A DNA stretch of 64,000 bases, taken from the NCBI GenBank assembly GCA_965217775.1, contig CBDCJH010000002.1:4096001-4160000 (forward strand). Reading direction: 5' to 3'. Made by a program: the position numbers and the translations under genes. This stretch comes from Acidobacteriota bacterium. Lineage in GTDB: Bacteria; Acidobacteriota; UBA6911; RPQK01; JAJDTT01. The notes under the pieces are model-generated. The model saw nothing but the letters and a program-made list of their open reading frames with translations. It was not told where the DNA came from and searched no databases. Positions 7,579 to 47,948 of the stretch are shown here, in pieces (within the stretch, counting starts at the first letter, position 1; every line of letters starts with the position of its first letter).

Positions 7579-8034
7579 TCAACTCCGCCGGTCAATTTCA
7601 AACGTTACTGAAGTGCGGACCGAGTTGGCGATGAAACACTCTTTGTGGGCAAGTTCGTGGATCTTCTCCAACCCTTCGGGAGATGGTGGCAGGGACCCAA
7701 AGGAGACCTTGGGATGGAGAACCACACGAGTCACGGCCAACTTCCCATCCCCGTTCTTCTCCAGGAACCCTACCGCTGCATCCCGGTAGTGATCCACGAC
7801 CAGCCGCTTACGAGCAGCGATGGCGAGAAAAGTGAGCATATGACAGCTCGCGAGTGCCGCAACATATGCCTTTTCGGGATCGACCAGGTTCGGATTCCCC
7901 AGGTACTCGGGTGCTGAGGACGCACTGACTCGAACCCCACCCTCAAACTTCCAAGTGTGATCGCGGGAGTAGGACCGATACTTGAATTCGGCAGAGCCCC
8001 TTTCCCATTCCACTGTCGCGTGATGCTCCGACAT
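7579..8034 (-). CDS. OsmC/Ohr family peroxiredoxin
   Basis: DPEK..AALASCHMLTFL and AHKECFIANSV, the two-Cys signature. Confidence 0.9.
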   Translation of the reverse strand: MSEHHATVEWERGSAEFKYRSYSRDHTWKFEGGVRVSASSAPEYLGNPNLVDPEKAYVAALASCHMLTFLAIAARKRLVVDHYRDAAVGFLEKNGDGKLAVTRVVLHPKVSFGSLPPSPEGLEKIHELAHKECFIANSVRTSVTFEIDRRS

Positions 8035-8223
8035 GTCTCGATTCCTCTGATCTCTGGTGAAATTTCTCTTTCCCTCCTCCAGGGCCGATTTCGGCTCGGA
8101 GCCCGAAAAGGCGACCTTGTCAAACGCGATGACAAGGACGAGGCCAGGGGCCGGCAGCGTACCCCGCGCCCCAGAGGGATCGACTCATGCAACGCGGCCG
8201 CAAGCTACGGGCACCGTAGTCCA

Positions 8224-29444: not shown

Positions 29445-29890
29445 GTGGAGGCGATCTGGGAGGCCCACTTGGAGGCGGACCAATTCCTTACGGACGCTGG
29501 CGTAGATATCCGACAAGTCGAGGGAGATCGGGCGTACTACCGTCTGAGCGCCGATGAGATCGTCCTGCCGAAGTGGGAGCAGTTTTCCTCGGCTAACCAT
29601 TACTACCAGACGGCGCTTCACAAGATGGGACACGCCACGGAACACCCCGAGCGCATGAACCGCGAGTCGTTGATCGAGGGGCTCAAGGCGGGTTTTGGTT
29701 CCGAGGCCTATGCCCGCGAGGAGTTGCGGGCAGAAATCAGCGCCATGATGACGGGCGAGACATCAGGATCGGTCACGGCCCCAGCCGGGTCAACTATGCC
29801 GAGAGTTGGATCGAGGTCTTGGAAAAGGATACCCCGGAAATCCGCCGGGCGGCGGCCGATCAGCAGAAGATCTCCGACTGCGTTCTAGTT
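29445..29890 (+). pseudogene. ardC: ArdC-type zincin-like (MPTase) fragment
   Basis: DRAYY...DEIVLP...YYQTALHKMGHAT...FGSEAYAREELRAEI; N-terminus missing, HE changed to HK, frameshift near 29760. Confidence 0.75.
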
Positions 29891-30056
29891 CGGAACCGGC
29901 AGCGGGCGGGACGGAGAGAGCAACAAGCCGCCAAGAGCGCTCCCTCTCGGACCCCACCGAATGCAGCCACCCTGCTACCGCGAGCCCGACCGAAGAAATC
30001 CTGGCAGGTCCATGGAGCGGATTTCTCGAGGGTCCGTCTCCCGCATTGCGGTATCC

Positions 30057-30626
30057 CTAAAGCCAACCCTTCTTTCTCCATTTGAGCAACGTGTCTCGAT
30101 CAACCCCCACCTTCCTTGCCACAGCGGCCCAACTCATGCCTTTGTCTCGGAGGGACACCACCAAAGCCTTCCTCTCGAGAGTGAACTTGGTCTTCCCGCG
30201 GCCGGGTTCCACCGGCGGCGATGCCAACTCCTCCAGAGTCAACTTCCGTCCAGATCGAATCCACCTTTGAAGGTGTGTGTTACACATCCCATGAGAGTCG
30301 TGATCCCGATCGCAACCGACGACGTCGCAGGTCCGATTGAGCATCGGATCCGCAAAGTGGAAATACCCTTTGGCCTTCCATGACCTCACCGTAGGCCAGC
30401 TCACGCCCAGATGTTTAGCGATCTGCTTCATGCTTAGACCGCGAGCATTGAGGGACTCCACGAGAACCTTTGTTTCCGGGTGCAGTCTCCCACGATTCGG
30501 CTTGAATGCCGCCAACTCCTCCAGAGTCATCGTCCATCCTGAACGGCGGAGCTTCGAGTAGTGGGAGATGCACAGACCCTTATATACCGCCTCCGATTCA
30601 CATCCACGGACAGCGCACTTGCACAC
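30057..30626 (-). CDS. Protein with tandem [C3H Zn-finger + HTH] x2
   Basis: CAVRGC..LCISHY and CDVVGC..MCNTHL, each followed by an HTH-like segment (IAKHLGVSWPTVRSW; VARKVGVDRDTLLKW); GTG start with purine-rich RBS. Confidence 0.7.
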   Translation of the reverse strand: MCKCAVRGCESEAVYKGLCISHYSKLRRSGWTMTLEELAAFKPNRGRLHPETKVLVESLNARGLSMKQIAKHLGVSWPTVRSWKAKGYFHFADPMLNRTCDVVGCDRDHDSHGMCNTHLQRWIRSGRKLTLEELASPPVEPGRGKTKFTLERKALVVSLRDKGMSWAAVARKVGVDRDTLLKWRKKGWL

Positions 30627-30676
30627 TACTCCCCCCTTACACATCCGTCTGGAGGGTCGAAGTCGTTCGATCAGCG

Positions 30677-30730
30677 AGAAGAAAAGGATATGAGGCGGGA
30701 GGAGGCTGGCCAAATGGCCGCCTCCTCCCA
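30677..30730 (-). terminator. Probable terminator of the adhesin gene
   Basis: GGGAGGAGGC...GCCTCCTCCC hairpin followed by a pyrimidine-rich tract on the minus strand. Confidence 0.55.
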
Positions 30731-30771
30731 TCAGGCAAAGAGGGTGGTCCGCGTTCACTCCCCTGAGGCAA

Positions 30772-33700
30772 TCACCGCACAGGAACTACCGGGAGGGTGG
30801 TGAAGATCCGGTTGTTGAAATCCATCTCCAGGGCAACACCGGTGAACATGGACCCCGCCGGCGCGGTGCAGTGGACCGAGCCTTCGAAGTCGTCCGTATC
30901 GGCGTCCATGAAGATCTCGTTGATGAACATGGAACTCTGGCCGTTGCCGGCCAAGTCGATCGTCTCCTCGCCCATCCTCATCCTTTGGCCGTCTGCCATC
31001 AACCTGCATGTCACCGTCGTGGCTTCCGAATCGAGGTTGCGGATGGCGACGCCGGTGTTGATTCCGCCGGCCATGCGGCGGGCCGGGAAGATGGCCGCGT
31101 TGACGGCCTCGCTGGCCCCGACTCCGGCGACACCGATGTTCGGGCTGTCGAAGCGGAGGACTCCGCCGATGGGTCCGTCGGAGACGACTCTCACCGAGCC
31201 GCGCATGCCGTCGCCCATGCCACTGGTCGAGATCGTCATCTCGCCCATGGGCGGAATCTCGTCCATGACCATCAGAGCGCCGTCTTCGTCGACCTCGACA
31301 CCGTCCATCATCGCGTCTACGACCATATCGGCGTCGATCATGTTGCCGTCTCGATCGTAGAAGTAGATGACAGGATCCACGGCCGTGTTGGCTACGTTCA
31401 CGAACACCAAGTCGGACGTGATCGGCACACCGCCGAATTCACCGTTGGCGAAGTGTGCAAAGTTCAGCATCGACATTCCGTCGTCGGACACGACCGCATC
31501 GTAGGGCACCACCGGGAGGGTAGTGAAGATCTGGCCGCCAAAGAGATCCATCTCCACGGCCACGCCGGTGAACATCCCACCTTCGGGAGCCATGCAGCGC
31601 ACAGACCCAACGAAGGCGGTCGTATTCGAACCCGGAAACATCTGGTCAATGAACTCGGAACTGTGGCCGTTTCCGGCCAGGTCGACCATCTTCGCATCCA
31701 TCATCCTGCCGTCCTTCATCAGGTGACAGGTCACGATCATAGGCTCGGCACTGAGGTTGCGGACCGCCGCACCGGTGTTGATTCCGCCCTCTATCCGACG
31801 TGCGGGGAAGATGGCGTCGTTGACGGGCTTGCTGGCTCCCACGCCGGCAACGCCTATGGCTGGGATGTCGAAACGCAGCACACCGCCTATGCGGCCGCTG
31901 GCGAACACCCTCACCGACCCGACCACGAGCGAGCCTTCGCCGTTGGTCGAAATCGTGATTTCGCCTCGGCCCCGGATCCCCATGGGAACGGTCAGGGCGC
32001 CGTCGTCCGCGACCTCAAGATCTCCCATCAGATCCACCACCGAATCGGCGGGAATCATCTCGCCCATCTGGTTGTAGAAGTAGATGGCCGGGGTCACCGT
32101 GGAAGTCTCCACGTTCACCAACACGATGTCGGAGGTGATGGTCACCCCAGTCGATTGGCCGTTGGCAAAGTGGGCGAAGTCGATGCCCTCCATGGGCGTT
32201 GCCTCAACCGAGGCGGAGGCGCCAGTACCGATGGCGTTCACCGCTCTCACCTCGATTTCATGGCCGATCCCGTTGGTCAGGCCCGTCATGGTGTAGCTGG
32301 TGGCACTCGCGCCGCCGGCCACGGCCATCCAGTTGCTCCACTGTCCACCGTTCATCCGGTAGCGCACCTGGTAGCCGGTAACCGCGGAGCCGCCGGTGTC
32401 GGCCGGCATGCCCCACATCACCGTGATGGTCTCGCTTTCGACCCTCGCCGTCAGGCCCGTGGGCGCGGTGGGCGCCCGGCCCGGCGTCGCGCTGTCTTCC
32501 GCAGCCGCACCTTCGCCGATGCTGTTCACCGCCCGCACCTGGAATCCATATTCCGTGCCGTTGGTGAGGCCGGTGACCGTGCGGCTCCTGGCGTTTCCGG
32601 CACCGCTGACGGTCGCCCAATCGCTGTAGGTCTCGCCAGACGCAGCGTAGCGGTACTCGTAACGGATGATCTGTGAGCCGCCGTCAGCTGGAGCACCCCA
32701 GGTCAGTGTGACCTGCTCGTCACCGGCGTCTGCCTCCAGATTCGAAGGCGCACCCGGCGCGGAATCCGCCAACGTGGCGCTGGCCGTGGCACCCTGGCCA
32801 CCACCGACGCTGTTCACCGCCCTCACCTCGAAGGTGTAGGACGCTCCGCTTTCCAGGCCAGTTACCGTGTAGCTGGTGGCACTGGCCCCGCCGGGAACGT
32901 TCGCCCACTCAGTGAAACTGCTGCCACTCTGCTGATAGCGGTGTTGATAACGGACGATCGCCAAACCACCGTCACTCGCCGGTGCGGTCCAACTCAACCT
33001 GACCTGCTGGTCTCCGCCGGTCGCCCTCAGGTTTCTGGGTGCACCCGGAGCACCCTCCACCGGGATGGTCACAACCACGTCCGCGACCCCGATACCCTGG
33101 TAGTCGCCGCCACTCACCGAATGCGTCAGCGTGACCGACTGCATCTCTTCGCCGCCAGCGTCTTCGTCCACCATCACCGTCACTGTCTGGTCGGCATTCC
33201 AGTTACTCGTCGTGAAGATCACCGGCGAACCGGTCACCGTCACGTCGTTCCTCGGGCTGTCCACCGTCACCGACACAGTATCCGTCGGCTGTGTGTTCAG
33301 CCGGACCCGATAGGTCCCGCTCACACCGGCCGCGATCGTCAGCGAGGTCGGACTCACCGTTACGCCTTTATTGTCATTCTCATTAATTGTCACCCTTACG
33401 GATGAAATCGCCGGCCGAGGATCGCCGTCGTCGTCTTTTTCGTATTCGTCCGCTCCACTCACTTTGTGCGTCAACGTTACCGGCACGTCTTGCGCGGCGT
33501 CTTCGTCCTCGGCCACACTGACCGTCACCGTCTGCGCACGGTTCCAATTGCCGATTGAGAAACTCACACTGCGCCCGCTCACTCTCACGTCATCGGAGGC
33601 GCCGGAAATAGCCACTGAGACTGGTGCCGTCGGTGCCTTGGTCAATACCATGGTGTAGGAATCGCTTCCGCCTTCGGTGATCGTGAGCGACGTCGGGTTC

Positions 33701-36552
33701 ACGGCCACGTCAGGCGTGTCGCTGTCCATGACTTCCACCGCGACATTTTCCGAGACGTTGTAATCCGAGTCTGAGCTTGTTGCGGCGTTTTCCAGAGTCG
33801 CTGAAGGGGCCGTTGCGTCGGCCGCTACGTGAACCGTCACAGGTCGTTCCCTGAACCAGTTGTCCGGCGTGAACGTCAGCGGCGTCGGGGTCGCGCTGAC
33901 ATCTGTGCCCCCTCCGGTTATGTTCACTGTAACGTCCATCGTCGGCTGGGTTTTCAGCACCACTCTATACGTCTGGCTCGAACCCTCAGGGATTTCCAGG
34001 CTCATCGGTGTCACGGACAAACCCGCCGTGTCGTTGTCCACGACTCTCACATCGACATTCTTCGCTGTCACCGTGGGCGGAGTGCTCGTGGAATCGTAGC
34101 CGCCACCCCTAACGGCGTGTGTCAGCGTCACGGTCCCGTGCGCACCGTTGGCATCTTCGTCTGCACGCACGGTCACCGATTGAGCAATGTTCCAGTTGCG
34201 TTGGGTGAAGGTCAGCCTGGTCGGAGCGACCGTCAGGGACTCCATCTTCGCCGTTTCAAGCCCAAGCCCACCCAACGTTACCGTCACGGGTCCCGTGGGC
34301 TGGGAATTCAGCCTGATGGTGTAGGTACTCGCCGTCGATCCCTCGTCGACCGTCAGTGCCGTTGGCGTGATTATGACGCCCTTCTGGTCATCCTCAGTGA
34401 TCCTCACCGTCACCTTGCCCATCTGGTCGCCGGTCAAGCCGCTATAGCCACCGCCACTTGCGGCGTGGGTCAGCGTTATGTCGGCATCTTGTTCCGCGTC
34501 GGCATCTTGGAGAGCCTTCACCTCCACCGTTTGCTCAGTGTCCCAGGTGCTGGTAGTGAATATCAGGCGCGAGGGAGTCAACGTCACGTCACCGGAATCG
34601 GCGCGCACCATGACCGTCACGGTCCCAGTGGGTTGCGATCGCAGTTTGACGGTGTATTCGCCGGTCTCACCCTCCATCATCGTTAGAGAATCGGTTGATG
34701 CGGTCACACCGATCATTTCGTTCTCCGTGACCGTGACCCGGACGCTATCCACCCCTCGGAGGCCGTCGTAGTCCCCGCCGCGAACCGTGTGCCTGAGCGT
34801 CACGGCATTCTCCGGTTCTCCGTCGGGGTCTTCCGCGGCGCTGACCACCACTTCCTTTGCCTCGAACCAGTCTGTAGTCGTGAACGTCCGCTGTGACGGA
34901 TTCACGGTCACATCACCCGAAGCCCCAGTTACCGTCACGGTCACATTGTCGGTCGGCTGGGTTTTCAATCTAATAGTGTAGGTTGCGCTTCCGCCCTCGG
35001 CGACCTCGAGTGACGTCTGGTCCAACTCGACGCCCCGCGTATCGTTTTCGCTAACCGTCACCCGCAATGTCCCGCCGGCTACCGTCACATCGCCGATCGT
35101 GTGCGCCACCGTTGCGGTATCCGTCACGCCATCTTCGTCTTCAGCCGCGGTAACCGTCACCGGCTGCGCCGTGTTCCAGTTGCCAGGGTTCTCTGCGTCG
35201 ACCGGCGCCGTGAAGGTCAGGGTGGCTTGATTGCCATCCGTATCCGCGTTGGTGTCCACCGTGACATCCACATCCGAGGAGGCCAGACTTACCGTCACAT
35301 CCGCCGACGGCCTAGAAGCCACCCTCACCGTGTAGGTGCGGCTCGTACCTTCGTTGACGGTCAGTGAACTCGTACTTAGTCTGATTCCCGATGTCGCCTC
35401 CCGGACGGTCACGGCGACGGTGTCATTATCAATAGTCGCGCCATCGTAAGACTCGTCCTTGCCGCTCGCATCGGTGATCGCATGCACCAAATCTACCGAT
35501 CCCGTGGCACTCGAGGTCACTCGAACCGTGACTGGCTTCGGTCGATTCCAGTCGCCCCTCGAAAACCTCACCGACGAGGTCGCACTCACACCTTCATTTT
35601 CATTATTCGGATCTTCCGTTACCGAAATGGTCACATTGCCCGTCGGCTGAGTATCGAGCACTATCGTGTAAGTCGCGTTCACGCCCTGGGCAATAGTCAG
35701 TGAATCGGTACTCACGGACACGCCCCGCGTGTCGTTGTCATCGACCGTCACCAACACCATGCTGTTTTCCCGGTCAGCTTCGGAGCCTGCAGGCACGCCG
35801 GTGTAGTCCCCACCTCGCACCGTGTGGGTGAGGGTCGCGGTATCGTCTTCCGCATCGAAATCCTCTCCCGCAAACACCGTCACCGTCTGCGCCATGGCGT
35901 AGTTATCCGCGGTGAAGAACAACCGGGACGGACTTACCGTGATTTCGCCCGAGGCGCCCGCAATGTCCACGGTCACCGTTGCAGTCGGTTCAGTGTTCAG
36001 CACGACCGTGTATTCACCAGTTTGAGTAGCTTCTAGGAAGAAAACCGTATTCGTACTCAACGTGACCAGTTTCGTATCGTTGTCGTCGACCATCACGGTC
36101 ACCGTCGCGTTTCTCAACGCCACCTCGTCTTCGTCGTCCCCGATCATTGCCGTGTGGGTGAGCGTGACTGTCTCATCCACAGCGTTAGCGTCGTCTCCCG
36201 CGGTCACCTCGAAGGTCTGCGCCGTATCGTAGGTGCCCGGCATAAAGGTCAGCGACGTTGGGTTCACCGTCAGGTCGGCCGTTGTGCCGCCCACCGTAAT
36301 CACGACATCTTCCGATGGCGCGGCATCCAGTTTGACAGTGTACTCAGCGGTATCTTCTTCCACGACGGTTAGTGATCGCGGGTCCATCGTCACGGCCAGG
36401 CTGTCTTGTGCGAACGCCAGTTGGGGCGTCGCGAGCAGCATGACGGCCAGGAAAGGGAAAAAACCCCTTCCGATGTGGACAAAGCAAGTGTTTCTTAGGC
36501 CGTCACAGATCGATGCGGACCTACTGCGTTTCGGCATGGGGATTCCCTCCAA
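30772..36552 (-). CDS. Large exported adhesin-like protein: ~10 Calx-beta/cadherin-like repeats, 3 FN3, 2 C-terminal repeats
   Basis: Signal peptide ending AFA; repeats of SLTVxEG..YTVxL.TQPT..LTFT..NW..QTVTV..ED.D..DND; three FN3 units (W..P..DGG..Y..EVRAVN); duplicated FAHFANG...FTTLPVVP domain. Confidence 0.9.
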   Translation of the reverse strand: MEGIPMPKRSRSASICDGLRNTCFVHIGRGFFPFLAVMLLATPQLAFAQDSLAVTMDPRSLTVVEEDTAEYTVKLDAAPSEDVVITVGGTTADLTVNPTSLTFMPGTYDTAQTFEVTAGDDANAVDETVTLTHTAMIGDDEDEVALRNATVTVMVDDNDTKLVTLSTNTVFFLEATQTGEYTVVLNTEPTATVTVDIAGASGEITVSPSRLFFTADNYAMAQTVTVFAGEDFDAEDDTATLTHTVRGGDYTGVPAGSEADRENSMVLVTVDDNDTRGVSVSTDSLTIAQGVNATYTIVLDTQPTGNVTISVTEDPNNENEGVSATSSVRFSRGDWNRPKPVTVRVTSSATGSVDLVHAITDASGKDESYDGATIDNDTVAVTVREATSGIRLSTSSLTVNEGTSRTYTVRVASRPSADVTVSLASSDVDVTVDTNADTDGNQATLTFTAPVDAENPGNWNTAQPVTVTAAEDEDGVTDTATVAHTIGDVTVAGGTLRVTVSENDTRGVELDQTSLEVAEGGSATYTIRLKTQPTDNVTVTVTGASGDVTVNPSQRTFTTTDWFEAKEVVVSAAEDPDGEPENAVTLRHTVRGGDYDGLRGVDSVRVTVTENEMIGVTASTDSLTMMEGETGEYTVKLRSQPTGTVTVMVRADSGDVTLTPSRLIFTTSTWDTEQTVEVKALQDADAEQDADITLTHAASGGGYSGLTGDQMGKVTVRITEDDQKGVIITPTALTVDEGSTASTYTIRLNSQPTGPVTVTLGGLGLETAKMESLTVAPTRLTFTQRNWNIAQSVTVRADEDANGAHGTVTLTHAVRGGGYDSTSTPPTVTAKNVDVRVVDNDTAGLSVTPMSLEIPEGSSQTYRVVLKTQPTMDVTVNITGGGTDVSATPTPLTFTPDNWFRERPVTVHVAADATAPSATLENAATSSDSDYNVSENVAVEVMDSDTPDVAVNPTSLTITEGGSDSYTMVLTKAPTAPVSVAISGASDDVRVSGRSVSFSIGNWNRAQTVTVSVAEDEDAAQDVPVTLTHKVSGADEYEKDDDGDPRPAISSVRVTINENDNKGVTVSPTSLTIAAGVSGTYRVRLNTQPTDTVSVTVDSPRNDVTVTGSPVIFTTSNWNADQTVTVMVDEDAGGEEMQSVTLTHSVSGGDYQGIGVADVVVTIPVEGAPGAPRNLRATGGDQQVRLSWTAPASDGGLAIVRYQHRYQQSGSSFTEWANVPGGASATSYTVTGLESGASYTFEVRAVNSVGGGQGATASATLADSAPGAPSNLEADAGDEQVTLTWGAPADGGSQIIRYEYRYAASGETYSDWATVSGAGNARSRTVTGLTNGTEYGFQVRAVNSIGEGAAAEDSATPGRAPTAPTGLTARVESETITVMWGMPADTGGSAVTGYQVRYRMNGGQWSNWMAVAGGASATSYTMTGLTNGIGHEIEVRAVNAIGTGASASVEATPMEGIDFAHFANGQSTGVTITSDIVLVNVETSTVTPAIYFYNQMGEMIPADSVVDLMGDLEVADDGALTVPMGIRGRGEITISTNGEGSLVVGSVRVFASGRIGGVLRFDIPAIGVAGVGASKPVNDAIFPARRIEGGINTGAAVRNLSAEPMIVTCHLMKDGRMMDAKMVDLAGNGHSSEFIDQMFPGSNTTAFVGSVRCMAPEGGMFTGVAVEMDLFGGQIFTTLPVVPYDAVVSDDGMSMLNFAHFANGEFGGVPITSDLVFVNVANTAVDPVIYFYDRDGNMIDADMVVDAMMDGVEVDEDGALMVMDEIPPMGEMTISTSGMGDGMRGSVRVVSDGPIGGVLRFDSPNIGVAGVGASEAVNAAIFPARRMAGGINTGVAIRNLDSEATTVTCRLMADGQRMRMGEETIDLAGNGQSSMFINEIFMDADTDDFEGSVHCTAPAGSMFTGVALEMDFNNRIFTTLPVVPVR

Positions 36553-36749
36553 ATACGATCTAGCGCTGTCGGGCTCTTCTCACAAGTGTTTTTTTCTCAC
36601 TGGTGCTATTCCTGATTCGTACGGAATCAGGAGGCACCCAAAGCGTCGACGAATGATACCATATCAATACTGACACCAATCTAACTGATGTTCCGTGCGC
36701 AAAAATGTGGCACCGAAGAGGTTCTTTGGCCATACCAAGAGGAGGTATC

Positions 36750-36930
36750 ATCCGTTGCCTCAAAGAAGGACCTCCCCGAAGAAAGTCCCGAGGTCGCTGC
36801 CCTCATCGTAGATCTTGACCGGGGTCGATGCCGATCCGGGAGTTCGTCCTTTAGATGCTCGATCCGCTGATGCAACTTGGCCGGAGTCAGTCGCTCGCAC
36901 TGAGCCTGAAGCTCTCGCTTGTGCGCCTCA
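36750..36930 (-). pseudogene. Possible C-terminal transposase/integrase remnant
   Basis: ELQAQCERLTPAKLHQRIEHLKDEL...SFFEAT resembles the tail of rve-type IS transposases; weak. Confidence 0.35.
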
Positions 36931-37099
36931 CGACTAAACCGTCCACGAAAACGGGACACCTTCATTCTCATGCGTTTCTGACCGGAGTCGGGACAGGGCC
37001 TCCCTCGTCACCGAATCTGGCGGGATTTCGGCACTATTCCTTCGACGGCGGTGAGAGGCAATTGAGTCTTTCCCCCGCCGCGGGCAGAATGGAGCCCTA

Positions 37100-37351
37100 T
37101 TGATCGATCTGGACTTGTTCGTCATCGGCACCGGACCCGCAGGTCAAAGAGCCGCCGTCCAGGCGGCCAAGCTGGGAAGGAGAGTCGGGATCTGCGACCG
37201 GCGCGAGGTGGTGGGCGGGGTCTGCATGAACACGGGAACCATCCCCTCCAAGACCTGCCGCGAGGCCCTCCTCTATCTGACGGGTTACCGGCAGCGGGCC
37301 ATTTACGGAGAATCGTATACGCTCAAGGAAGACTTGGAGATGCAGGATCTC
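37100..37351 (+). pseudogene. sthA: N-terminal fragment of soluble pyridine nucleotide transhydrogenase
   Basis: DLFVIGTGPAGQRAAVQAAKLG..GGVCMNTGTIPSKT; homology ends after about 84 codons. Confidence 0.8.
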
Positions 37352-37397
37352 CATGGGCCAACAAGATTTACGAGTCTTTTACGATCAGGGTTTCCCT

Positions 37398-38144
37398 ATG
37401 CCCGACCCAGTGTCCATCGTCGTGCCGACGTTTCGGGAGGCCGCGAATATCCCGTCCCTGCTTCGCCGCGTAGAGGCCACGTTGTCCGAATGGCCCACCG
37501 AGTGGGAATTAATCCTGGTGGACGACGACTCGAACGACGGCAGCGAGACTGTCGTGGCGGAGTGGGGGTGCCGACTCCCCATTCGCATGGAGATCCGACG
37601 CGACGCGCCCAGAGACCTGTCCCGCTCGGTACTCCTTGGCATGCGGCTCGCTCGCTTCGACCGGCTGGTGGTGATGGACGCCGACCTGTCGCACCCGCCG
37701 GAGCAGATCCCCGACTTGCTTGCCGCCCTTGAACCCGACTGCGACATCGTCGTCGGCAGCCGATACGTGTCTGATGCACGGGTGGATCCTGCCTGGGGCT
37801 GGTCCCGGGCGTTCCTGTCACGGGTCGGGACACTGATGGCGCGTCCGCTGGTAAATTGTCGCGACCCCCTGTCGGGGTTCTTCGCGATTGATCGCCGGAC
37901 CCTTCCCGATCTGGATGAGTTCCATCCTCTTGGCTATAAGATTGCTCTTGAACTGATGGCACGCGGGCAGCTTCGAGTCCGGGAAGTCCCGATCCGGTTC
38001 GAAACTCGCAGCCGGGGCCAGAGCAAGTTGAACTGGCGAACACACGTCCACTTTCTGCGCCATCTTTGCCGACTGTACGCCCCCCGCCTCGGGGAAACGG
38101 TGCGGAAGACACGCTTGGACGAAAAGCCTGGCGATGCACCGTGA
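37398..38144 (+). CDS. Polyprenol-phosphate mannose synthase (GT2, DPM1/Ppm1-like)
   Basis: VSIVVPTFREAANI, VDDDSNDGS, MDADLSHPP, VGSRY, DPLSGFF, GYKIALE, EVPIRF..R..GQSKL. Confidence 0.9.
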   Translation: MPDPVSIVVPTFREAANIPSLLRRVEATLSEWPTEWELILVDDDSNDGSETVVAEWGCRLPIRMEIRRDAPRDLSRSVLLGMRLARFDRLVVMDADLSHPPEQIPDLLAALEPDCDIVVGSRYVSDARVDPAWGWSRAFLSRVGTLMARPLVNCRDPLSGFFAIDRRTLPDLDEFHPLGYKIALELMARGQLRVREVPIRFETRSRGQSKLNWRTHVHFLRHLCRLYAPRLGETVRKTRLDEKPGDAP

Positions 38145-38210
38145 CCGCTACGGTGACGATTTTCGGTCGCCACCGAATGGCCGGGCCGGGCCATCGAGGG
38201 CAAGAGCAAC

Positions 38211-40652
38211 ATGACCGAGAAGAAGCAACTGGCACCCCGCGCCTCCAGCATCCGATTTGTCGGGTCGATGAGCAGTCATGCCCTGCTACTGGGCCTCCTG
38301 GTCATCGTCAGCTATCTGCCGGTGCTTGAAGCCGGATTCGTCTGGGACGACGTGATCTTCGTCGACGAACCCGTGGTTCACAACTGGTCCGGGCTGTGGA
38401 ATATCTGGTTCTCCCCGGCAGACATAAAGAAAGAAGGTCACTATTGGCCCATCGTCTATGCGAGTTTCTGGCTGGAGCACAAGCTTTGGGGGTTGGACCC
38501 GCTGGGCTATCACGTCGTCAACCTGCTGTTGCATCTCGTAAACGTCCTGCTGATCTGGCGCCTCCTTGAGCGTCTGGCCGTGCCCGGCTCCTGGATCATC
38601 GCGGCCGTCTTTGCCGTCCACCCTCTGCATGTCGAGTCGGTCGCCTGGGTCATCGAGCGCAAGGACCTGCTTTCGGCGTGGTTCTACCTGACCGCCGTTT
38701 TCACCTGGATCCGGTTCGTGGAGGCACCGAAGCCGGCCCGTTACCTGCTGGCGCTCGTTCTGTTCTCGACCGGCCTGTTATCCAAGTCCATCGTGGTGAC
38801 GCTACCGGTGGCGCTCTTGATCTGGCACTGGTGGCAAACAGGCCGTGTGACACGGACCGAATTGATCCGGCTGGCGCCATTCTTCGCGGTGGCACTGGTC
38901 ATTACGGCCCTTGATCTGTCGTTCTACACCTCGCGGGAGCCACTGGCGCTCGGCTATTCCTTCGTCGAGCGTATCCTGATTGCGACCCGCGCGCTGTGGT
39001 TCTACGTGGGCAAGCTGCTGTGGCCGACGGGTCTTGCCATTATTTATCCGCTTTGGGAAATTCGCCCGGCGGACCCGGTTTCCTGGATCTGGGTCTTGGC
39101 TGCGGTTGCCCTGGCGGCGCTGCTCTGGTTCGGCCGGGAGCGGTTGGGACGGGGACCTCTGGCAGGAGCTCTATTCTTTGCCGTGACGCTGTCACCGGTA
39201 CTCGGTTTCGTCGACTATGGATACATGCAGTTCTCTCTGGTCGCGGACCGGTTCCAGTATCTGGCGGGTCTCGGCGTGCTGGCGGTGCTCCTCGGCGCGG
39301 CGACGCATGGCGTCAGCCTGCTTCCGGCCGCGATGAGAACCTGGGCCGGGGGCATGCTCGTCTCCATACTGGCGCTACTGGGCACACTCACGTGGCACCA
39401 AGCGGGCTTATATCGGGACCCGATCACCTTTTTCAGCCACATCGTCGCGCACAATCCCGAGGCGCGGGACGCCCACCTCAACCTGATGGGGCCCCTTTCG
39501 GATGCTGGTCGCCACGAGGAGGCGCTGGCCGCGGGCCGCATCGGCGTGGCGCAGCGACCCGACAATGCGGCTATTCATTCCAATCTTGGCCGGGTTCTCA
39601 TCCGACTGGATCGCCTCGATGAGGCTGAAGCGGCGCTGGACACGGCCCTGGGGCTCGACCCCCGGCATCTAAACGCGAACCAGAACCTCGGGGAAATCTT
39701 GCGGAAACAAGGCCGGTACACCGAGGCGATCGAGACCTACCGCAGGGTGCTCGAAATCGATGACAGCCTCGTGCAGGGATACGGCGGACTCGGCATTGCG
39801 CTGTTCCATACGAGACGCTACCAGGACGCGATTGCGCCACTGGAGAAAGCGCTTGAATTGGAGCCTGACGCCCCGTTCGCGGGTGAGCTCTCACTGTACG
39901 CGGGGCGCGCGGAGCGCGAAGTGGACCGGCTCGACTCTGCAAGTGCGCATTTCCGGCGCGCCGCGGCATTGACGCCGGATCCTGTGGATGCCCTGGTGGA
40001 ATTGTCCAACGTGATGTTCTTGCGGGACCGCGACGACGAAGCCGAGGAGTATCTGCGCCGCGCTCGTGAGCTGCGTCCCAGCGACCCCACGATGCTCTTA
40101 AGCGTGGGCGAGGCGCTCAGGAAGGCGGAGCGGCATGAGGAGGCGATCGTCTTTTACCGTGAATCGCTGCGAATCGACCCGCACTTCGTCGGTTCCCGGG
40201 TTGGCCTGGGCGCGGCGTTTTTCAAGCTCAAACGCTACGAAGAAGCCTTCGATTCTCTGACACGGGCGACCATGGCGGAAACGGACCCGGAAACGGCGGC
40301 GACGGCGCACTATCTGGCGGGCCGGACTCTGCTGGAACTGGATCGGCCGGCGGAAGCGGCGGTGCATTTCGAGAGCGCGCTGGAACGCGATCCGAAACAC
40401 ACGAAAGCACTGGACCATCTGGCCCATTTGAGGTTCGGACAGAAGAAGTACGAGGATGCGCTCGACCTGTATCGAACCCACGCGACTCTGAAACCCGACA
40501 GCGTCACCGTCCATGCCAACATCGGCGTGACGCTGTACTTCCTAGGACGTCATGCCGAAGCGCTGGAAAGCATGGAACGCGTGCTCCGGCTTGACCCGGA
40601 CCACCAAATGGCCCGGAAAATGGTCGCTCAACTCCGCAAAGTCAACCAATAA
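38211..40652 (+). CDS. TMTC-like GT-C membrane glycosyltransferase with C-terminal TPR array
   Basis: Multi-TM N-half with FVWDD, YHVVNLLLH, HPLHVESVAWVIERKD, LLSKS, ADRFQY; C-half is TPR repeats. Confidence 0.85.
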   Translation: MTEKKQLAPRASSIRFVGSMSSHALLLGLLVIVSYLPVLEAGFVWDDVIFVDEPVVHNWSGLWNIWFSPADIKKEGHYWPIVYASFWLEHKLWGLDPLGYHVVNLLLHLVNVLLIWRLLERLAVPGSWIIAAVFAVHPLHVESVAWVIERKDLLSAWFYLTAVFTWIRFVEAPKPARYLLALVLFSTGLLSKSIVVTLPVALLIWHWWQTGRVTRTELIRLAPFFAVALVITALDLSFYTSREPLALGYSFVERILIATRALWFYVGKLLWPTGLAIIYPLWEIRPADPVSWIWVLAAVALAALLWFGRERLGRGPLAGALFFAVTLSPVLGFVDYGYMQFSLVADRFQYLAGLGVLAVLLGAATHGVSLLPAAMRTWAGGMLVSILALLGTLTWHQAGLYRDPITFFSHIVAHNPEARDAHLNLMGPLSDAGRHEEALAAGRIGVAQRPDNAAIHSNLGRVLIRLDRLDEAEAALDTALGLDPRHLNANQNLGEILRKQGRYTEAIETYRRVLEIDDSLVQGYGGLGIALFHTRRYQDAIAPLEKALELEPDAPFAGELSLYAGRAEREVDRLDSASAHFRRAAALTPDPVDALVELSNVMFLRDRDDEAEEYLRRARELRPSDPTMLLSVGEALRKAERHEEAIVFYRESLRIDPHFVGSRVGLGAAFFKLKRYEEAFDSLTRATMAETDPETAATAHYLAGRTLLELDRPAEAAVHFESALERDPKHTKALDHLAHLRFGQKKYEDALDLYRTHATLKPDSVTVHANIGVTLYFLGRHAEALESMERVLRLDPDHQMARKMVAQLRKVNQ

Positions 40653-41007
40653 CCCGTCCGGTTGATCGTTCCCGCGGGATTCCTACTGCGGTCAGGCGAC
40701 TCCATGGCGATTCATCCGACCGCTGACCGAGCGGTCAGCACACGGCAGTCCGAAGCCGGACACCTTCATCCTCAGGCAGAATCCGCCGGTGCTGACAAGC
40801 GGTCGGCAAAGCCGATTCACAATGTCTCTGAGTCAGGCAACAAAGGGGGAACAAGGGAAAAGAGAAGAGATTGCCGGCATTCAGGAGCCGATTCGGCTGC
40901 CTGTTTGTTGCCTGTGCAGGACGCCAAACATAGGGAGTCAACCACTTTACCGATTCGGCGAAGAACCCGGTAGATGACTGAAAAAGTTAATGTTTAGTAG
41001 TTCTTGA

Positions 41008-41544
41008 CTAAAGGGCAGACGGGATTGGAAATCGCCGCTCCACATGCGCGAGATGATGCCGGCCGTGCCAGGCGTAGGCCCCGACGGTGACCGCCAGTCT
41101 GGAGGCGCCCGACTCAGGGTGCACGAACTCCCGCTGGAGTTGCTCCCAGCTCAGGCTGCGCAACAGATCCACCCAACGGCAGTGGAGGGCCGCCAGGAGA
41201 TCGAGCGAAGAAGCGACCGGTTCCCGACTGTCCGGCAGCTCGGCCCAACTCTTCTCGTCGTAGGCCTTGATCACGGGCCGGTCTTCCGTCAGCGCCAACT
41301 TGAATCGAACGTAGCTGTTCATGTGACTGTCGGCCAGGTGGTGGACCACTTGCCGGACGGTCCAGCCACCCGGACGGTACGGGGTGTCCAGTTGGCCGTC
41401 GGTCAACGGAGAGACCGCCCGCCGGAGGTCGGCCGGCAACGCCGCAATATCGTCGATCCAGGCGGTGACCCGATCACGGGTCACCTCTCCCTCGAGTGAG
41501 AATTTTCCAATTGGATATCGAAGATCAGTTGTCGGTGGATTCAT
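41008..41544 (-). CDS. YfiT/BstA-like bacillithiol transferase (DinB fold)
   Basis: LRYPIG, LDTPYRPGGWTVRQVVHHLADSH, YAWHGRHHLAH. Confidence 0.9.
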   Translation of the reverse strand: MNPPTTDLRYPIGKFSLEGEVTRDRVTAWIDDIAALPADLRRAVSPLTDGQLDTPYRPGGWTVRQVVHHLADSHMNSYVRFKLALTEDRPVIKAYDEKSWAELPDSREPVASSLDLLAALHCRWVDLLRSLSWEQLQREFVHPESGASRLAVTVGAYAWHGRHHLAHVERRFPIPSAL

Positions 41545-42224
41545 ATTCGATCACCTGTTTGGCTAGTCTCGGCAGCCGCGCCACTGGTGGTCTCGTCCCC
41601 TTCGCCAGTGTAGAATGCGGTCGTGTGCCCGGCCCGCGAACGCGCGGCGGCGGGATCGGTTCCGAACGCGACGGCCGCTTGTTCCCACCCCTCGCTGCTG
41701 CCGCTGATGAACGCCCGCCCGTCCGGCGAAACCGCGAATGCGGCCGGGTCGGGCATCGGCGCGGCCGGTTGCGCAAGATGGATCGCGAGTCCCAGCAGAC
41801 CCAATTCCCAGCCGACGCCGAGCGCACCCGGCCCGTACTCATCCCAGTGTTCCGAAACCTGCTGGGTGTGCGTCAGGGTCAGCCGGGCGCCGCCGGCGCC
41901 ATCGCCCGAGCAGTGGACCTCCAACCAACTGACTTCCCCGCCGAACTCCCATGTGACCGCAAAATGGGACAGAGGCTCGCACGCCGTGACCACGCCGCCC
42001 GCATTGCCTTCCAACTGATAGCGGCCCCCAAGTTCGAGCTCGCCGCTGACCGTCAGAAACCAGCGCGGAATCCGCTCGCCGTTGGTCACGGCGTCCCACA
42101 CGTCCTCGACCGACGTCGCGTAGCTGCGAGAAAGCGTGACCGCTCGCGCGGGACGCCCATCCCGCTCCATCGACCATACGGAACGCTCTGCGGCGCCAAG
42201 GTTGCCTTCGACATCGAAGTCCAT
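41541..42224 (-). CDS. SRPBCC/AHSA1-family protein
   Basis: EDVWDAVTNGERIPRWF, GPGALGVGWELGL. Confidence 0.88.
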   Translation of the reverse strand: MDFDVEGNLGAAERSVWSMERDGRPARAVTLSRSYATSVEDVWDAVTNGERIPRWFLTVSGELELGGRYQLEGNAGGVVTACEPLSHFAVTWEFGGEVSWLEVHCSGDGAGGARLTLTHTQQVSEHWDEYGPGALGVGWELGLLGLAIHLAQPAAPMPDPAAFAVSPDGRAFISGSSEGWEQAAVAFGTDPAAARSRAGHTTAFYTGEGDETTSGAAAETSQTGDRI

Positions 42225-42289
42225 GGTTTCTCTATATATATAATGTATCCGGTCCGCCGTTGGACCCCGGGAGCGCCGGATTCCTCGTC

Positions 42290-42838
42290 CTACGACGACC
42301 TCTTCGCGTCCCCGCAGGCTTTCTCAAAAACCGGATTCGCGTTGTACTCGTCAGACTTGCCCGGTGGGATACTCAGGGATTCCCAGGAATCCCCGCGGAA
42401 GCACTTGCCCAGATAGACGATTTGTCCGACGTGATAGGACGCGTGGGCCAGAGAGAGCAGCAGGGCCTCATCGACGCCCATGGACACGCCCCGGATGATC
42501 ACGGAACGATCCAGATCGTCATCGGTAAGCTCTAGAAGCGAGCCAAAAAGCACCTGCCAACCTCGGTCCCATTTCTCCTCGATCTCGGCGCGTGACGGCG
42601 TCCGCGGTTCGAATTCCGAGTCCCGATTCCGCCACGGCTTCTCGCCGTCTGTCGTCAGGAAGTCCGTGAACCTGGATTCCAGATTGCCGGCGATGTGCCA
42701 GACGATCATGGCGATTGAGTTGGCCCCCGCCGAATCCGCCACCAGCTCCCCGGCGCTCAACTGGCGGAAAGTCCCCTCGCCGAGAGCCTTGTAGCGCTGG
42801 TACTCGGCTTCAATCAGTGACAGCAGTCCTCGACTCAT
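42290..42838 (-). CDS. DUF1572/DinB-family protein
   Basis: NSIAMIVWHIAGNLESRFTDFLTTDGEKPWRNRDSEF, HASYHVGQI. Confidence 0.88.
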   Translation of the reverse strand: MSRGLLSLIEAEYQRYKALGEGTFRQLSAGELVADSAGANSIAMIVWHIAGNLESRFTDFLTTDGEKPWRNRDSEFEPRTPSRAEIEEKWDRGWQVLFGSLLELTDDDLDRSVIIRGVSMGVDEALLLSLAHASYHVGQIVYLGKCFRGDSWESLSIPPGKSDEYNANPVFEKACGDAKRSS

Positions 42839-43504: not shown

Positions 43505-43702
43505 GAGTGAACCTGCGGCGGGGCCGTCACATACGGCCCCTTCAGGGGTGCCACAGGGAAACCCGAGGGAGCTTGCGCGTCGTCACTGTCGGGTAACGAA
43601 GAGCTCGGGATAGGACTCCACACCGGGCTTCTCCAGACCGTGGGGGTAGAAAGGATGGTTGAAAACCTGCCCCTGGGTTCTGGATATCGTCGCAGCATTT
43701 TG

Positions 43703-43742
43703 AAAAAAGAAGGGGGAGACCTGATTGCAGGTCTCCCCTTCC
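43703..43742 (-). terminator. Rho-independent terminator
   Basis: GGGGAGACCTG/CAGGTCTCCCC stem followed by a T-run on the minus strand, about 70 bp after the 43811 stop. Confidence 0.85.
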
Positions 43743-43810
43743 GTTTCTACCCGGTCCGTCGATCTCCCTTGGTTGAAGAGAGTGACGTTCCTTGGATTGG
43801 CTGGACCAAC

Positions 43811-45748: not shown

Positions 45749-45838
45749 TTTGTAACTCCTTACTTGTTTGGTTGAAACAGAAAACACGTCAAATTCATCG
45801 TTCTCACGCCTGTCCCATAGGCTGTGCCCCTCCCCCTA

Positions 45839-46934: not shown

Positions 46935-47948
46935 TCACGATCCTCTCCCGTACCGGATCCGCGCCACGGGTCCGCGGGATGCGAGTTGCCCCCGGACATA
47001 CCGGCCCGGCATATGCGGAGAGGTCCAGCGTCCGGCCTGCTGGAGCTCCACCAGAGAGGCTCCCCGAAGGGCGAGGGACTGAGCCGACCCGACCCGGAGC
47101 GAATGCCCGGAGACTCGGACGCCGTCGATTCCGGCCTGCCTCGCCCGCTTCTGGATGACGCTCCGAATGCTCCGGGAGCTGAGGGCGCCTTCCTCCACGG
47201 TCCCCCCGACCCGAATCGGTCGAAACAAAGGCCCGGAATTGAAGGCGCCATCGGTCATCCAGGCACGGATCCGCCGCATGGTGAGCGCTCCCAGAAACAG
47301 GATCGCTCCCTCCCCCTCCTGGTCGGTCTTGGAATTGTGAATCGTGATCAAGCCGGCGCCTCCGTTGTCCTCCCGGATGTCGGCGCACTGAAGCGCGGCG
47401 ACTTCCGAGACCCGAAGCATGGCGTCAGACATGATCGAGATCAGGGCAGCGTCGCGGAAAGCGGCAAGAGACCCCGGCTCGACGGCCGTAATGAGGGCGG
47501 CAATGATGTCGGCCATCTCCCAACTGATCCCTTCGACCTGACCCCGGCCCCTCTTGCGTCCCTCGCGCCGGAACCCGGCCAAGACCCGATCCGTGGCCGG
47601 CCCCACAGGTGAACGCGCACCCGTGGTCTTGGCCTGAAAGCGGACGGCGGCCACGACCATGCTGGCTGAGGAGGGGGAACGCCCCCGATGAAACAGAGAC
47701 GCGAGGTAGCTGGCGAGCCGACCGTCCTCGAGGGTAGCATCGTGTTTGTCCAGATAGTCCTGCAAACGCTGAAGGGCGCCTTGATAGGCTCGGCGCGTGT
47801 TTTTCGACAGGGACGCGGCGGCGAGATCGGCGACTCTCCGGGGAGCGCCGGACAAGGATGAATCCGAAGCCGGGACGGCGACCGAATCTGTCCGGACATC
47901 GGAATGGCGGGCGGGCGGTGGGGCGTTGGCAGGTTGCGGGTTGGGCAT
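46935..47948 (-). CDS. Cre-like tyrosine recombinase
   Basis: RDAALI..LRVSEV, SKTDQEGEG, SGHSLRVG, GRW..M..Y catalytic set. Confidence 0.93.
   Translation of the reverse strand: MPNPQPANAPPPARHSDVRTDSVAVPASDSSLSGAPRRVADLAAASLSKNTRRAYQGALQRLQDYLDKHDATLEDGRLASYLASLFHRGRSPSSASMVVAAVRFQAKTTGARSPVGPATDRVLAGFRREGRKRGRGQVEGISWEMADIIAALITAVEPGSLAAFRDAALISIMSDAMLRVSEVAALQCADIREDNGGAGLITIHNSKTDQEGEGAILFLGALTMRRIRAWMTDGAFNSGPLFRPIRVGGTVEEGALSSRSIRSVIQKRARQAGIDGVRVSGHSLRVGSAQSLALRGASLVELQQAGRWTSPHMPGRYVRGQLASRGPVARIRYGRGS

Follow-up and report, generated by a model that had tools for sequence, protein, structure and literature searches.

Does a bacterial gene pair resembling the parts of an O-mannosylation pathway act on the giant adhesin encoded beside it? 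The question arises within a 64,000-nucleotide stretch of an Acidobacteriota genome, analysed as a whole and called the window here.

Organization of the locus

The adhesin gene (30772..36552, minus strand) encodes an exported protein of 1926 aa and is divergent from two plus-strand genes, a GT2 glycosyltransferase gene (P0002; 37353..38144, 263 aa) and a gene encoding a GT-C membrane domain joined to tetratricopeptide repeats (TPRs; 38211..40652, 813 aa), with 66 bp separating the GT2 stop from the GT-C start. An earlier note on this DNA had described these genes as donor synthase, transferase, and substrate of one locus. All its coordinates and motifs were confirmed, with one adjustment: the synthase start it gave, 37398, is an internal ATG (an alternative start) of the same frame.

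The divergent intergenic region (36553..37099) contains a 96-aa ORF (36681-36971, minus strand) with no family match and ends at the N-terminal fragment of a flavoprotein gene (37100..37351, plus strand; Pyr_redox_2 E 1.4e-7, FAD_oxidored E 6.7e-9). This pyridine-nucleotide-disulphide oxidoreductase fragment breaks off where the GT2 gene begins. It is the sthA that had been reported, together with IS fragments, between adhesin and synthase. The fragment is indeed there, although only 84 aa long, but the sole recognizable IS-type piece, an HTH-only transposase-type fragment (30057..30758, minus strand; HTH_23, HTH_28, and HTH_Tnp_1 matches), sits downstream of the adhesin gene, outside the adhesin-GT2 gap. 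Its presence beside the adhesin is a sign of rearrangement.

A putative donor enzyme

The GT2 protein matches Glycos_transf_2 (Pfam PF00535, E 1.4e-22), and no TM segments were seen in its 263 residues. Its best solved relative is the Dol-P-Man synthase of P. furiosus (5mlz; E 3.9e-43, 151 bits), to whose catalytic domain it aligns across residues 19-242, although 5mlz is longer (374 aa) and has C-terminal membrane helices that the GT2 protein lacks. The match leads every other solved GT2 by ~100 bits, with ArnC at 54.7 bits and the sll0501 glycosyltransferase, which we take to be GtrB-type, at 32.8 bits. This supports the DPM1/Ppm1-like assignment made previously and suggests a candidate polyprenyl-phosphate-mannose synthase-like donor enzyme.

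The sugar might be another hexose or a hexosamine, the GT2 being a polyprenyl-phosphate glucose or other synthase. The protein reaches no NCBIfam equivalog cut-off, its weak matches including ArnC, PgfS, AglJ, and a dolichyl-phosphate hexose transferase. Given the lead of the Dol-P-Man synthase match, we consider this quite improbable; gene neighborhoods, described below, also bear on it.

The GT-C/TPR protein

A membrane GT-C domain with 11 predicted TM-type helices (residues 1-420; 38211-39470, plus strand) leads into an array of ~12 TPRs (residues ~404-813). Residues of the motifs FVWDD (43-47), HPLHVESVAW (137-146), and ADRFQY (345-350) are mostly invariant across 30 relatives, and D46/D47, R150, D152, K192, R347, and Y350 are invariant positions. 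Pfam detects PMT_2 at 84-232 (33.8 bits; cut-off 26.1) followed by TPRs from ~420, and finds no match to TMTC_DUF1736, even at E<=10, or to PMT (PF02366). BLASTP nonetheless aligned the protein with one ORF at each of the six DUF1736-positive bacterial loci tested (E 4e-31 to 5e-12, 26-37% identity), and found nothing at E<0.07 among co-located GT22, PMT_2-without-TPR, and TMEM260-like GT-Cs. The homology was clear in a profile-profile comparison: hhalign against the DUF1736-positive proteins gave 99.9% over 384 columns (E 2e-33).

The DD, YxP, RxD, K, and [DE]RxxY positions align with TMTC motifs M1-M4 and M7 as listed in PMC7801869. Two residues given a metal-binding role in a published TMTC model, Glu in the KE motif and Asp in the DW motif, correspond here to Ser193 and Ile278. 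The earlier description of a TMTC-type enzyme thus stands as regards homology to DUF1736-positive proteins and distinction from PMT/GT39, but the Pfam signature failed and the two residues with that modelled role are absent. Judged by sequence, the protein belongs to a divergent TMTC-like subfamily, not to GT39, and is a candidate periplasm-facing TMTC-like protein O-mannosyltransferase. Contigs of 300-330 nt with 0-1 differences match the gene in two RNA libraries from one study, a weak sign of expression for which DNA carry-over is a possible source.

The AF2 model (pLDDT 86.1) resembles AglB (Z 17.0, 315 aligned residues), STT3 (17.0, 330), ALG12 (16.8, 319), Pmt1-Pmt2 (15.9, 346), and ArnT (15.8, 323), so for this predicted structure fold scores do not separate protein-modifying from lipid-modifying GT-Cs. 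The near-equal ArnT and Pmt1-Pmt2 scores, together with generic PMT_2 as the only Pfam GT-C match, are compatible with a module that, like ArnT-type GT-Cs, modifies a non-protein acceptor (lipid A/LPS core, exopolysaccharide, or some other envelope glycan) and uses its TPRs as a scaffold in the periplasm, as polysaccharide export proteins do. NCBIfam TPR matches to PgaA, BcsC, and LapB-type proteins, all far under cut-off, point the same way, as does the second GT-C/TPR gene of this genome, which belongs to a Wzt-type polysaccharide cluster and has GT2, GT4, methyltransferase, and Wzt ABC-transporter genes around it. We regard a non-protein acceptor as possible though unlikely: the GT2 is DPMS-like rather than ArnC-like, the genes around the pair within the window include none of the arn, LPS, or EPS type, and TMTC_DUF1736-type proteins are the nearest definable relatives of the GT-C protein.

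The adhesin

A signal-peptide-like leader (residues 1-49, ending AFA/QD, as read from the sequence) and ~10 Thr-rich beta-sandwich-type repeats with DDNDT-type linkers (residues 50-1165) form the N-terminal part of the adhesin (33058..36552, minus strand). Nine DDNDT-type boundary motifs delimit the repeats, which are 104-119 aa each and contain 16.7% Thr and 9.5% Asp. Three fn3 domains follow (32197..33057, residues ~1166-1452; Pfam E 4.6e-39 in three stretches). Export, repeats, and FN3 domains agree with what had been claimed for this protein, but its Calx-beta/cadherin identity is not called by Pfam at E<=1. The Atlas clusters nearest to the repeats either bear the name cadherin-domain or have Calx-beta in 15% of their members; with this language-model lead and the linker motif as its basis, the label is unconfirmed.

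The protein also has a duplicated C-terminal domain (residues 1455-1926) that the earlier note had missed. Its two tandem, unnamed copies of ~230 aa (30772..32190; residues 1455-1690 and 1691-1926) carry the motif FAHFANG...FTTLPVVP and have no Pfam match. None of 722 homologs is annotated, and this genome holds 53 copies in 27 regions. In the AF2 model (pLDDT 88.7) each copy forms two beta-sandwiches, the second half resembling TM1070 (1nc7, Z 12.7, 107 aligned) and ASRT (2ii7, Z 9.2). The TM1070/ASRT fold is predicted to be sugar-binding, and the glycan formed by the module could therefore be the adhesin's anchor rather than its decoration, a point in favor of a non-protein acceptor.

Conservation and gene linkage

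We surveyed 69 related loci from many phyla for partner genes within 10 kb. In 22 of them, distributed over 10 taxon labels, the GT-C gene is directly preceded by a co-oriented P0002-type GT2 gene (57-97% identity), bearing out the DPM1-type linkage. One or more lipid-sugar partners (such as GT22, GtrA, or TMEM260-like genes) occur in 47/69 loci; the other 22 have none within 10 kb, and six of these are shorter than 12 kb. The GT2 and GT-C/TPR genes are a conserved two-gene module. Members of the GT-C subfamily, spread over phyla, are 46-97% identical across their full length; the GT-C half is 60-80% identical and the TPR half is variable. Tandem GT-C/TPR paralogs occur at 27/69 loci. Such TPR variability and paralogy would fit client selection and a protein acceptor, against the non-protein alternative. 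Concerning the sugar, Alg9-like GT22 genes accompany the transferase in 26/69 loci, and to our knowledge all characterized GT22 members use lipid-phosphate-mannose, which argues for mannose, although three GT22 queries detected no GT22 in this genome.

Adhesins of the window's repeat type were found within 10 kb of the transferase in 7/69 loci, plus the window, in records from Vicinamibacterales, Terriglobia, Spirochaetia, and Chloroflexota; the loci are not independent, and the link is present in ~5 lineages. In four adhesin-linked genomes such adhesins are rare, the listed matches falling in 1-5 ORFs each. The 10 listed matches of 12 in G002 are all within one ORF adjoining the locus, and the two listed of 14 in G009 share a single ORF that stops shortly before the GT-C gene. 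Listed matches fall in five ORFs in G131 and three in G132, one in each genome being the transferase neighbor. With 133 repeat matches in G133, adjacency there is uninformative. Only three regions of this repeat type exist in the genome under study; one adjoins the GT pair, and another is ~17 kb from the second GT-C/TPR gene. The survey supports the view that repeat-type adhesins lie beside the transferase with a frequency above that expected from their low copy number.

Age of the adjacency

In three sister genomes (G006, G007, and G008) the adhesin orthologs lie megabases from the GT pair, and the pair's upstream neighbor is a different protein, dCache-like with the adhesin's C-terminal domain. 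The adjacency in the window is therefore recent, as the earlier note had cautioned it could be. The pair is 97.8% identical to that of the 97%-identical relative L001, versus ~63% for the adhesin at the protein level and over its full length. The L001 intergenic region has ~820 bp extra (7226-8046), an internal GT22 gene fragment (264 aa, 75.8% identical to the L029 GT22) of which the window retains no trace. Across the window and L001, the rearrangement scars comprise the truncated flavoprotein gene abutting the GT2, the GT22 fragment, and the transposase piece.

These observations are what would be expected if the module glycosylates proteins but this adhesin is no client, its position an accident of recent rearrangement or insertion of a mobile GT pair. 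We think this unlikely, since the repeat type recurs beside the transferase in several lineages despite its rarity in four of the genomes. Of the one-locus claim, the conserved GT2-transferase pair and the recurrent adhesin link hold, but the adjacency seen here is recent.

Proposed pathway

The homology, fold, gene linkage, and distribution of the module are observed; we infer its sugar, the protein nature of its acceptor, the membrane side, and the identity of its clients. With a probability of about one in two, we read the GT2 and GT-C/TPR pair as a system that O-mannosylates proteins in the periplasm with polyprenyl-phosphate-mannose as donor and has the adhesin among its plausible clients. 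The soluble GT2 would form polyprenyl-phosphate-mannose at the cytoplasmic face of the inner membrane, and the lipid-linked sugar would then pass to the periplasmic face. There the GT-C domain of 11 helices, in which the DD loop is invariant, would transfer a single hexose, most likely mannose, onto Ser/Thr of exported proteins. The periplasmic TPR array may select clients, most likely giant secreted Thr-rich beta-sandwich repeat proteins such as the divergent adhesin.

Comparison with known systems

ArnT/ArnC (GT83, lipid A aminoarabinose) shares the GT-C fold and a GT2 that loads polyprenyl phosphate, but the window GT2 is much closer to DPMS, arn genes are not nearby, and ArnT lacks a TPR array. 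PMT/POMT (GT39) with Ppm1 is the system characterized for protein O-mannosylation in fungi and, among bacteria, in actinobacteria. It has the GT-C fold, polyprenyl/dolichyl-P-Man from a DPMS-type GT2, and exported Ser/Thr acceptors, features the window pair putatively shares; the GT-C protein differs in having a TPR array in place of a MIR domain and no PF02366 match.

Uncharacterized bacterial DUF1736-positive GT-C/TPR proteins, which score above the cut-off in 14 of 121 sampled genomes of Acidobacteriota, have the same architecture and align along as many as 668 residues at 26-37% identity, whereas the window subfamily is distinct, far more conserved, and found across phyla.

Animal TMTC1-4 (CAZy GT105, Pfam TMTC_DUF1736 plus TPR) are ER O-mannosyltransferases for cadherins. 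Judged through the published motifs and the bacterial DUF1736-positive proteins, the GT-C protein resembles them in its N-terminal 11-helix GT-C domain followed by a long TPR array, the DD in the first outer loop, and equivalents of M2 (YxP), M3 (RxD), M4 (Lys), and M7 ([DE]RxxY). A lipid-phosphate-mannose synthase as donor source and beta-sandwich repeat adhesins as clients are presumed likenesses. It differs in lacking the DUF1736 HMM match and in having KS for KE and IY for DW/DY. TMTC1-4 act in the ER, whereas the putative activity of the window protein would be bacterial and periplasmic.

Gene arrangement

The window carries two adjacent glycosyltransferase genes divergent from a giant exported repeat protein. 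The first (37353..38144, +) encodes a 263-aa GT2 with a Pfam Glycos_transf_2 domain (PF00535, E 1.4e-22); the second (38211..40652, +), starting 66 bp beyond it, encodes an 813-aa GT-C/TPR protein, hereafter the transferase. The adhesin (30772..36552, −; 1926 aa) has a signal-peptide-like N-terminus, ~10 repeats of 104–119 aa each that are rich in Thr (16.7%) and Asp (9.5%) with DDNDT-type motifs at nine boundaries, three fn3 domains identified by Pfam, and two C-terminal copies of an unnamed domain of ~230 aa, which the earlier note had not recorded. The earlier note had read the layout correctly in its 66-bp spacing, Thr-rich repeats and three FN3 domains. Its description of the repeats as cadherin/Calx-beta did not hold in Pfam, where residues 48–1160 matched neither Cadherin nor Calx-beta at E ≤ 1 and gave only weak fn3_6 and Ig-like matches. 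In the protein atlas, the clusters nearest the repeats bear a cadherin-domain name or have Calx-beta in 15% of their members.

Adhesin and GT2 are separated by ~800 bp. This gap contains a 96-aa ORF without a family and the N-terminal 84 aa of a Pyr_redox_2 flavoprotein, truncated where the GT2 begins; the sthA gene proposed for this interval was thus rightly located and is a fragment rather than an intact gene. IS fragments had also been placed in the gap, and the recognisable transposase fragment instead sits just downstream of the adhesin (30057–30758, −). It retains only an HTH and, with a neighbouring ORF bearing a zincin-like MPTase-PolyVal domain (29445–29888, +), looks like a mobile-element remnant. 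Beyond the transferase, the opposite strand encodes small proteins of the DinB_2, AHSA1 and DUF1572 families (three genes, 41008–42838, −), which appear unrelated to glycosylation. Two overlapping long ORFs (43811–45787, −, 658 aa; 43640–44575, +, 311 aa) match no Pfam family at E ≤ 0.1, and a phage-integrase-family tyrosine recombinase gene (46935–47948, −) lies ~6 kb past the pair.

Candidate donor synthase

Compared with all solved structures, the GT2 is closest to the dolichol-phosphate-mannose synthase (DPMS) of Pyrococcus furiosus (5mlz; E 3.9e-43, 151 bits, residues 19–242), followed by ArnC at 54.7 bits and, at 32.8 bits, the sll0501 glycosyltransferase, which we take to be GtrB-type. 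No NCBIfam equivalog exceeded its cut-off; the top model, ArnC, scored 54.3 bits where its cut-off is 529. The gene had been called a DPM1/Ppm1-like synthase, and its catalytic domain indeed falls nearest a characterised DPMS. The P. furiosus enzyme has C-terminal membrane helices whereas the GT2 has none; human DPM1 and the mycobacterial Ppm catalytic subunits likewise do without them.

Predicted fold and orientation of the transferase

Pfam places PMT_2 (PF13231) at transferase residues 84–232 (33.8 bits, cut-off 26.1), with TPR families (TPR_1, TPR_2; E about 1e-52) C-terminal to it. In the AF2 model (pLDDT 86.1, pTM 0.70), the first 400 residues form 11 membrane-type helices and residues 404–812 another 24 helices, equivalent to ~12 TPRs. 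A basic N-terminus on the inside would put the TPR array in the periplasm, along with the DD loop and the remaining conserved loops. The previously noted FVWDD, HPLHVESVAW and ADRFQY motifs were all found, most of their residues being invariant across 30 and 29 relatives.

Full-length searches were dominated by TPR proteins, and in an alignment of the model to ~48,000 chains GT-C matches took ranks 31–48. Over transferase residues ~10–428 the model aligns to AglB (3waj; Z 17.0, 315 residues), STT3 (6s7t; Z 17.0, 330), ALG12 (9s6t; Z 16.8, 319), Pmt1–Pmt2 (6p2r; Z 15.9, 346) and ArnT (5f15; Z 15.8, 323), so the modelled fold is GT-C. Because these scores are tied, they do not discriminate among GT-C families. 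A single-sequence search of the PDB with the GT-C domain gave no match, and profile searches returned only two weak bestrophin matches (E 0.04–0.06), which we judged spurious. No TMTC structure was found in these PDB searches. From the protein atlas, which offers leads without alignments, the same domain retrieved only PMT_2/TPR clusters of bacteria; TMTC clusters were not among them.

What suggests mannose transfer to Ser/Thr is the context, namely the DPMS-like neighbour and the linkage to an adhesin. With the GT-C scores tied, modification of a non-protein acceptor by the pair is a serious, if unlikely, rival. Our preferred reading, to which we assign a probability of roughly 0.5, is that the pair performs periplasmic, polyprenyl-phosphate-mannose-dependent O-glycosylation of exported proteins through a divergent TMTC-like enzyme.

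Conservation and horizontal spread of the module

We conclude that the two genes form a genuine module, conserved and horizontally mobile. A word-limited search scored 8,000 candidates, among which at least 4,429 are relatives of the transferase; the best 120 share 67–98% identity over the GT-C domain. Genome scans yielded 69 related loci in MAGs, eight shorter than 12 kb, whose titles include Acidobacteriota, Aminicenantes, Binatia, Nitrospirales, Spirochaetia, Chloroflexota, Latescibacterota, Alpha- and Gammaproteobacteria, Gemmatimonadota, Entotheonella and Porisulfidus, among others. We take the last two to be sponge symbionts.

Partners were counted by tblastn within 10 kb of the transferase at the 69 loci. 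A GT2 of the window's type (57–97% identity) lies upstream on the same strand at 22 loci under ten taxon labels, which bears out the proposed linkage to a DPM1-like gene; a distant GT2 occurs at eight. Other recurrent neighbours are GT22 (Alg9-like; 26 loci), GtrA (18), a TMEM260-like GT-C (11) and a second PMT_2 GT-C without TPRs (nine), and 47 of the 69 loci have at least one of these six partners. Tandem paralogs of the transferase are present at 27 loci, many having two to four copies. Searching the host genome by tblastn (E ≤ 1e-5) with GT22 and PMT_2-without-TPR proteins (three of each) and GtrA and TMEM260-like proteins (two of each) revealed no further partners. Its kit is minimal, which fits single-sugar transfer.

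Of 121 genomes sampled from the window's phylum, 45 contain a transferase relative at E ≤ 1e-20 (43 of 119 without two flagged as unpublished). Identities of 80–81% are confined to the same genus, and the next best within the phylum reach 40–48%. Copies in other phyla are 46–62% identical over their full length (60–76% over the GT-C domain), exceeding the 27–48% of most homologs inside the phylum. Taken with the tandem paralogs, these sequence comparisons point to probable horizontal transfer among co-habiting bacteria.

In a close relative of the window (L001, 97% identical), part of a GT22 (Alg9-like) gene survives between the adhesin and GT2 genes as an internal fragment of 264 aa (L001:7218–7961, −), 75.8% identical to a Latescibacterota gene. 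The ~820 bp containing it are missing from the window at 36964–36968. The kit seems to have once included a third gene, since decayed.

Contigs of 300–330 nt with zero or one difference cover parts of the GT-C gene in two RNA libraries labelled ‘sponge metagenome’. Within 30000–41000 of the window, the RNA contigs matched stretches encoding the adhesin's C-terminal domains and the 5′ portion of the transferase gene; most of the region lies outside them, a gap that carries no meaning. DNA runs of ten studies contain the glycosyltransferase pair. Since DNA carry-over is possible, the RNA contigs point only weakly to habitat and expression.

The adhesin as a putative client

Evidence for an association of the module with adhesins comes from several lineages. 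Repeats of the adhesin's type lie within 10 kb of the transferase at seven of the 69 loci, representing ~5 independent lineages, against ~1 locus expected by chance according to rough arithmetic rather than a formal test. In a Spirochaetia genome (G002), all ten matches listed out of 12 lie in one 9,483-aa ORF next to a locus with GT22, a DPMS-like GT2 and a second PMT_2 in addition. In G009, both matches listed out of 14 lie in a 12,429-aa ORF ending ~270 bp before the transferase. The matches listed for G131 and G132 fall in five and three ORFs, respectively, one of which is the immediate same-strand upstream neighbour of the GT2 or the transferase. G133, with 133 repeat matches, is uninformative on adjacency.

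The adjacency within the window itself is probably recent, a possibility of which the earlier note had warned. The divergent arrangement is common to the window and L001, which are 97.8% identical over the pair. Orthologs of the adhesin (1924–1959 aa) in three sister genomes are megabases away from the pair, which there has as its upstream neighbour a dCache-like protein with the adhesin's C-terminal domain at its end. The adhesin–GT2 junction in the window shows scars. In favour of the adhesin as a client, the repeat type is rare in the host genome, occurring in three regions, one of which adjoins the pair. A second of these, a 1948-aa adhesin paralog outside the window (L071:7647–13493, −), lies ~17 kb from a second PMT_2 plus TPR gene (L070:5822–8083, −), itself amid GT2, GT4, methyltransferase and Wzt ABC-transporter genes (host genome G000:C2:4604001–4640000). 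A reverse-transcriptase ORF (RVT_1, L070:1814–3373) belongs to the same cluster. We regard the adhesin as a plausible, putative client of the module.

The two C-terminal copies of the unnamed domain (30772–32190, −) bear the motif FAHFANG...FTTLPVVP. It has 722 homologs of 129–413 aa, all unannotated and without a Pfam family. The host genome has 53 copies in 27 regions, mostly tandem pairs that end giant exported proteins (ORFs of up to 6,268 aa), and three sister genomes have 24–34 copies. We considered this domain as a universal client or partner and rejected it, because it was not found in seven of ten other transferase-holding genomes. The AF2 model (pLDDT 88.7) predicts two beta-sandwiches. 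Foldseek gave no match at E ≤ 0.001; in structural alignment the second half resembles TM1070 (1nc7; Z 12.7 over 107 residues at rmsd 2.6) and the sensory rhodopsin transducer of Anabaena (ASRT, 2ii7; Z 9.2), the matches after these scoring ≤ 6.7. We take the TM1070/ASRT fold to be predicted sugar-binding, and therefore speculate that the domain anchors giant proteins to an envelope glycan.

If the module works as we read it, TMTC-like O-mannosylation would be widespread in bacteria, given the at least 4,429 close relatives and the 45 of 121 sampled Acidobacteriota genomes with a relative. It would also provide a tractable two-gene system for how TPR arrays choose beta-sandwich clients, and would suggest that glycosylated giant adhesins are a common, horizontally traded trait of host-associated bacteria. 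A broader scenario, which we rate as unlikely, takes in ten or more phylum-level lineages, many of them bearing names of sponge symbionts and turning up in sponge-labelled libraries. Their bacteria would trade this TMTC-like kit horizontally and put single mannoses on beta-strands of cadherin-like giant adhesins. The result would be a counterpart of the animal cadherin O-mannose pathway, or even a mimic of it, that aids attachment to the host or tolerance by it.

Comparison with known glycosyltransferase systems

To our knowledge, characterised bacterial protein O-mannosylation involves actinobacterial PMT/GT39 enzymes only. The PMT/GT39 family is marked by a PF02366 match and a luminal or periplasmic MIR beta-trefoil, and the transferase shows neither: PF02366 did not match at E ≤ 10, leaving PMT_2 as the only GT-C match, no MIR domain was among the best 25 of 31 Pfam matches, and the model is all-helical. 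ArnT/GT83 works with an ArnC-type GT2 within an arn operon. Here the GT2 scores 151 bits to DPMS versus 54.7 to ArnC, the neighbouring genes are unrelated, and the ArnT Z score of 15.8 is on a par with those of the other GT-C enzymes.

The proposed assignment to DUF1736/GT105 rather than GT39 stands as homology to the DUF1736 family and fails as a direct domain match. TMTC_DUF1736 (PF08409, a loop between TM7 and TM8) matched neither transferase residues 1–420 at E ≤ 10 nor anything in the host genome at E ≤ 1. DUF1736-positive proteins over the cut-off occur in 14 of the 121 sampled genomes of the phylum, and BLASTP with the transferase found a match among the ORFs at each of six such loci (26–37% identity, E 4e-31 to 5e-12). 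Aligned by hhalign, the transferase family and the bacterial DUF1736-positive family gave 99.9% probability (E 2e-33, 384 columns, 27% identity), the comparison being with bacterial members alone. BLASTP against the GT22, PMT_2-without-TPR and TMEM260-like GT-Cs of related loci gave nothing better than E 0.07.

We mapped the TMTC motifs, as listed in PMC7801869, onto the transferase family through the hhalign alignment. The M1 DD of the first outer loop corresponds to D46–D47, invariant in 30 and 29 sequences; M2 (..YRP) appears as HYWP in the family, M3 (RxD) as R150-K-D152, and M7 (ERxxY) as D346-R-FQ-Y350. M4 (KE(T/Q)xxT) is K192-S-IVV-T197 and M5 (DW, or DY in bacterial DUF1736 proteins) is I278-Y279. 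The Glu of M4 and Asp of M5 are metal ligands according to the homology model in PMC7801869, and the transferase has S193 and I278 in their places. Motif mapping and homology together indicate that the transferase represents a divergent TMTC-like subfamily.

In animals, TMTC and TMEM260 add a single O-mannose to Ig-like or cadherin domains (PMC10214176, PMC11292533). The portion of the TMTC literature available treats TMTC-type enzymes as an animal ER pathway, and the available text of PMC10214176 mentions bacteria only as ‘distant homologs in bacteria’, for TMEM260. In a literature collection with few subscription journals, we found no experimental work on GT-C/TPR or TMTC-like enzymes of bacteria. 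Relative to TMTC/GT105, the transferase differs in having no PF08409 match and neither the M4 Glu nor the M5 Asp; it shares with them a GT-C N-terminal domain, a TPR array following the last TM helix, and the DD motif.
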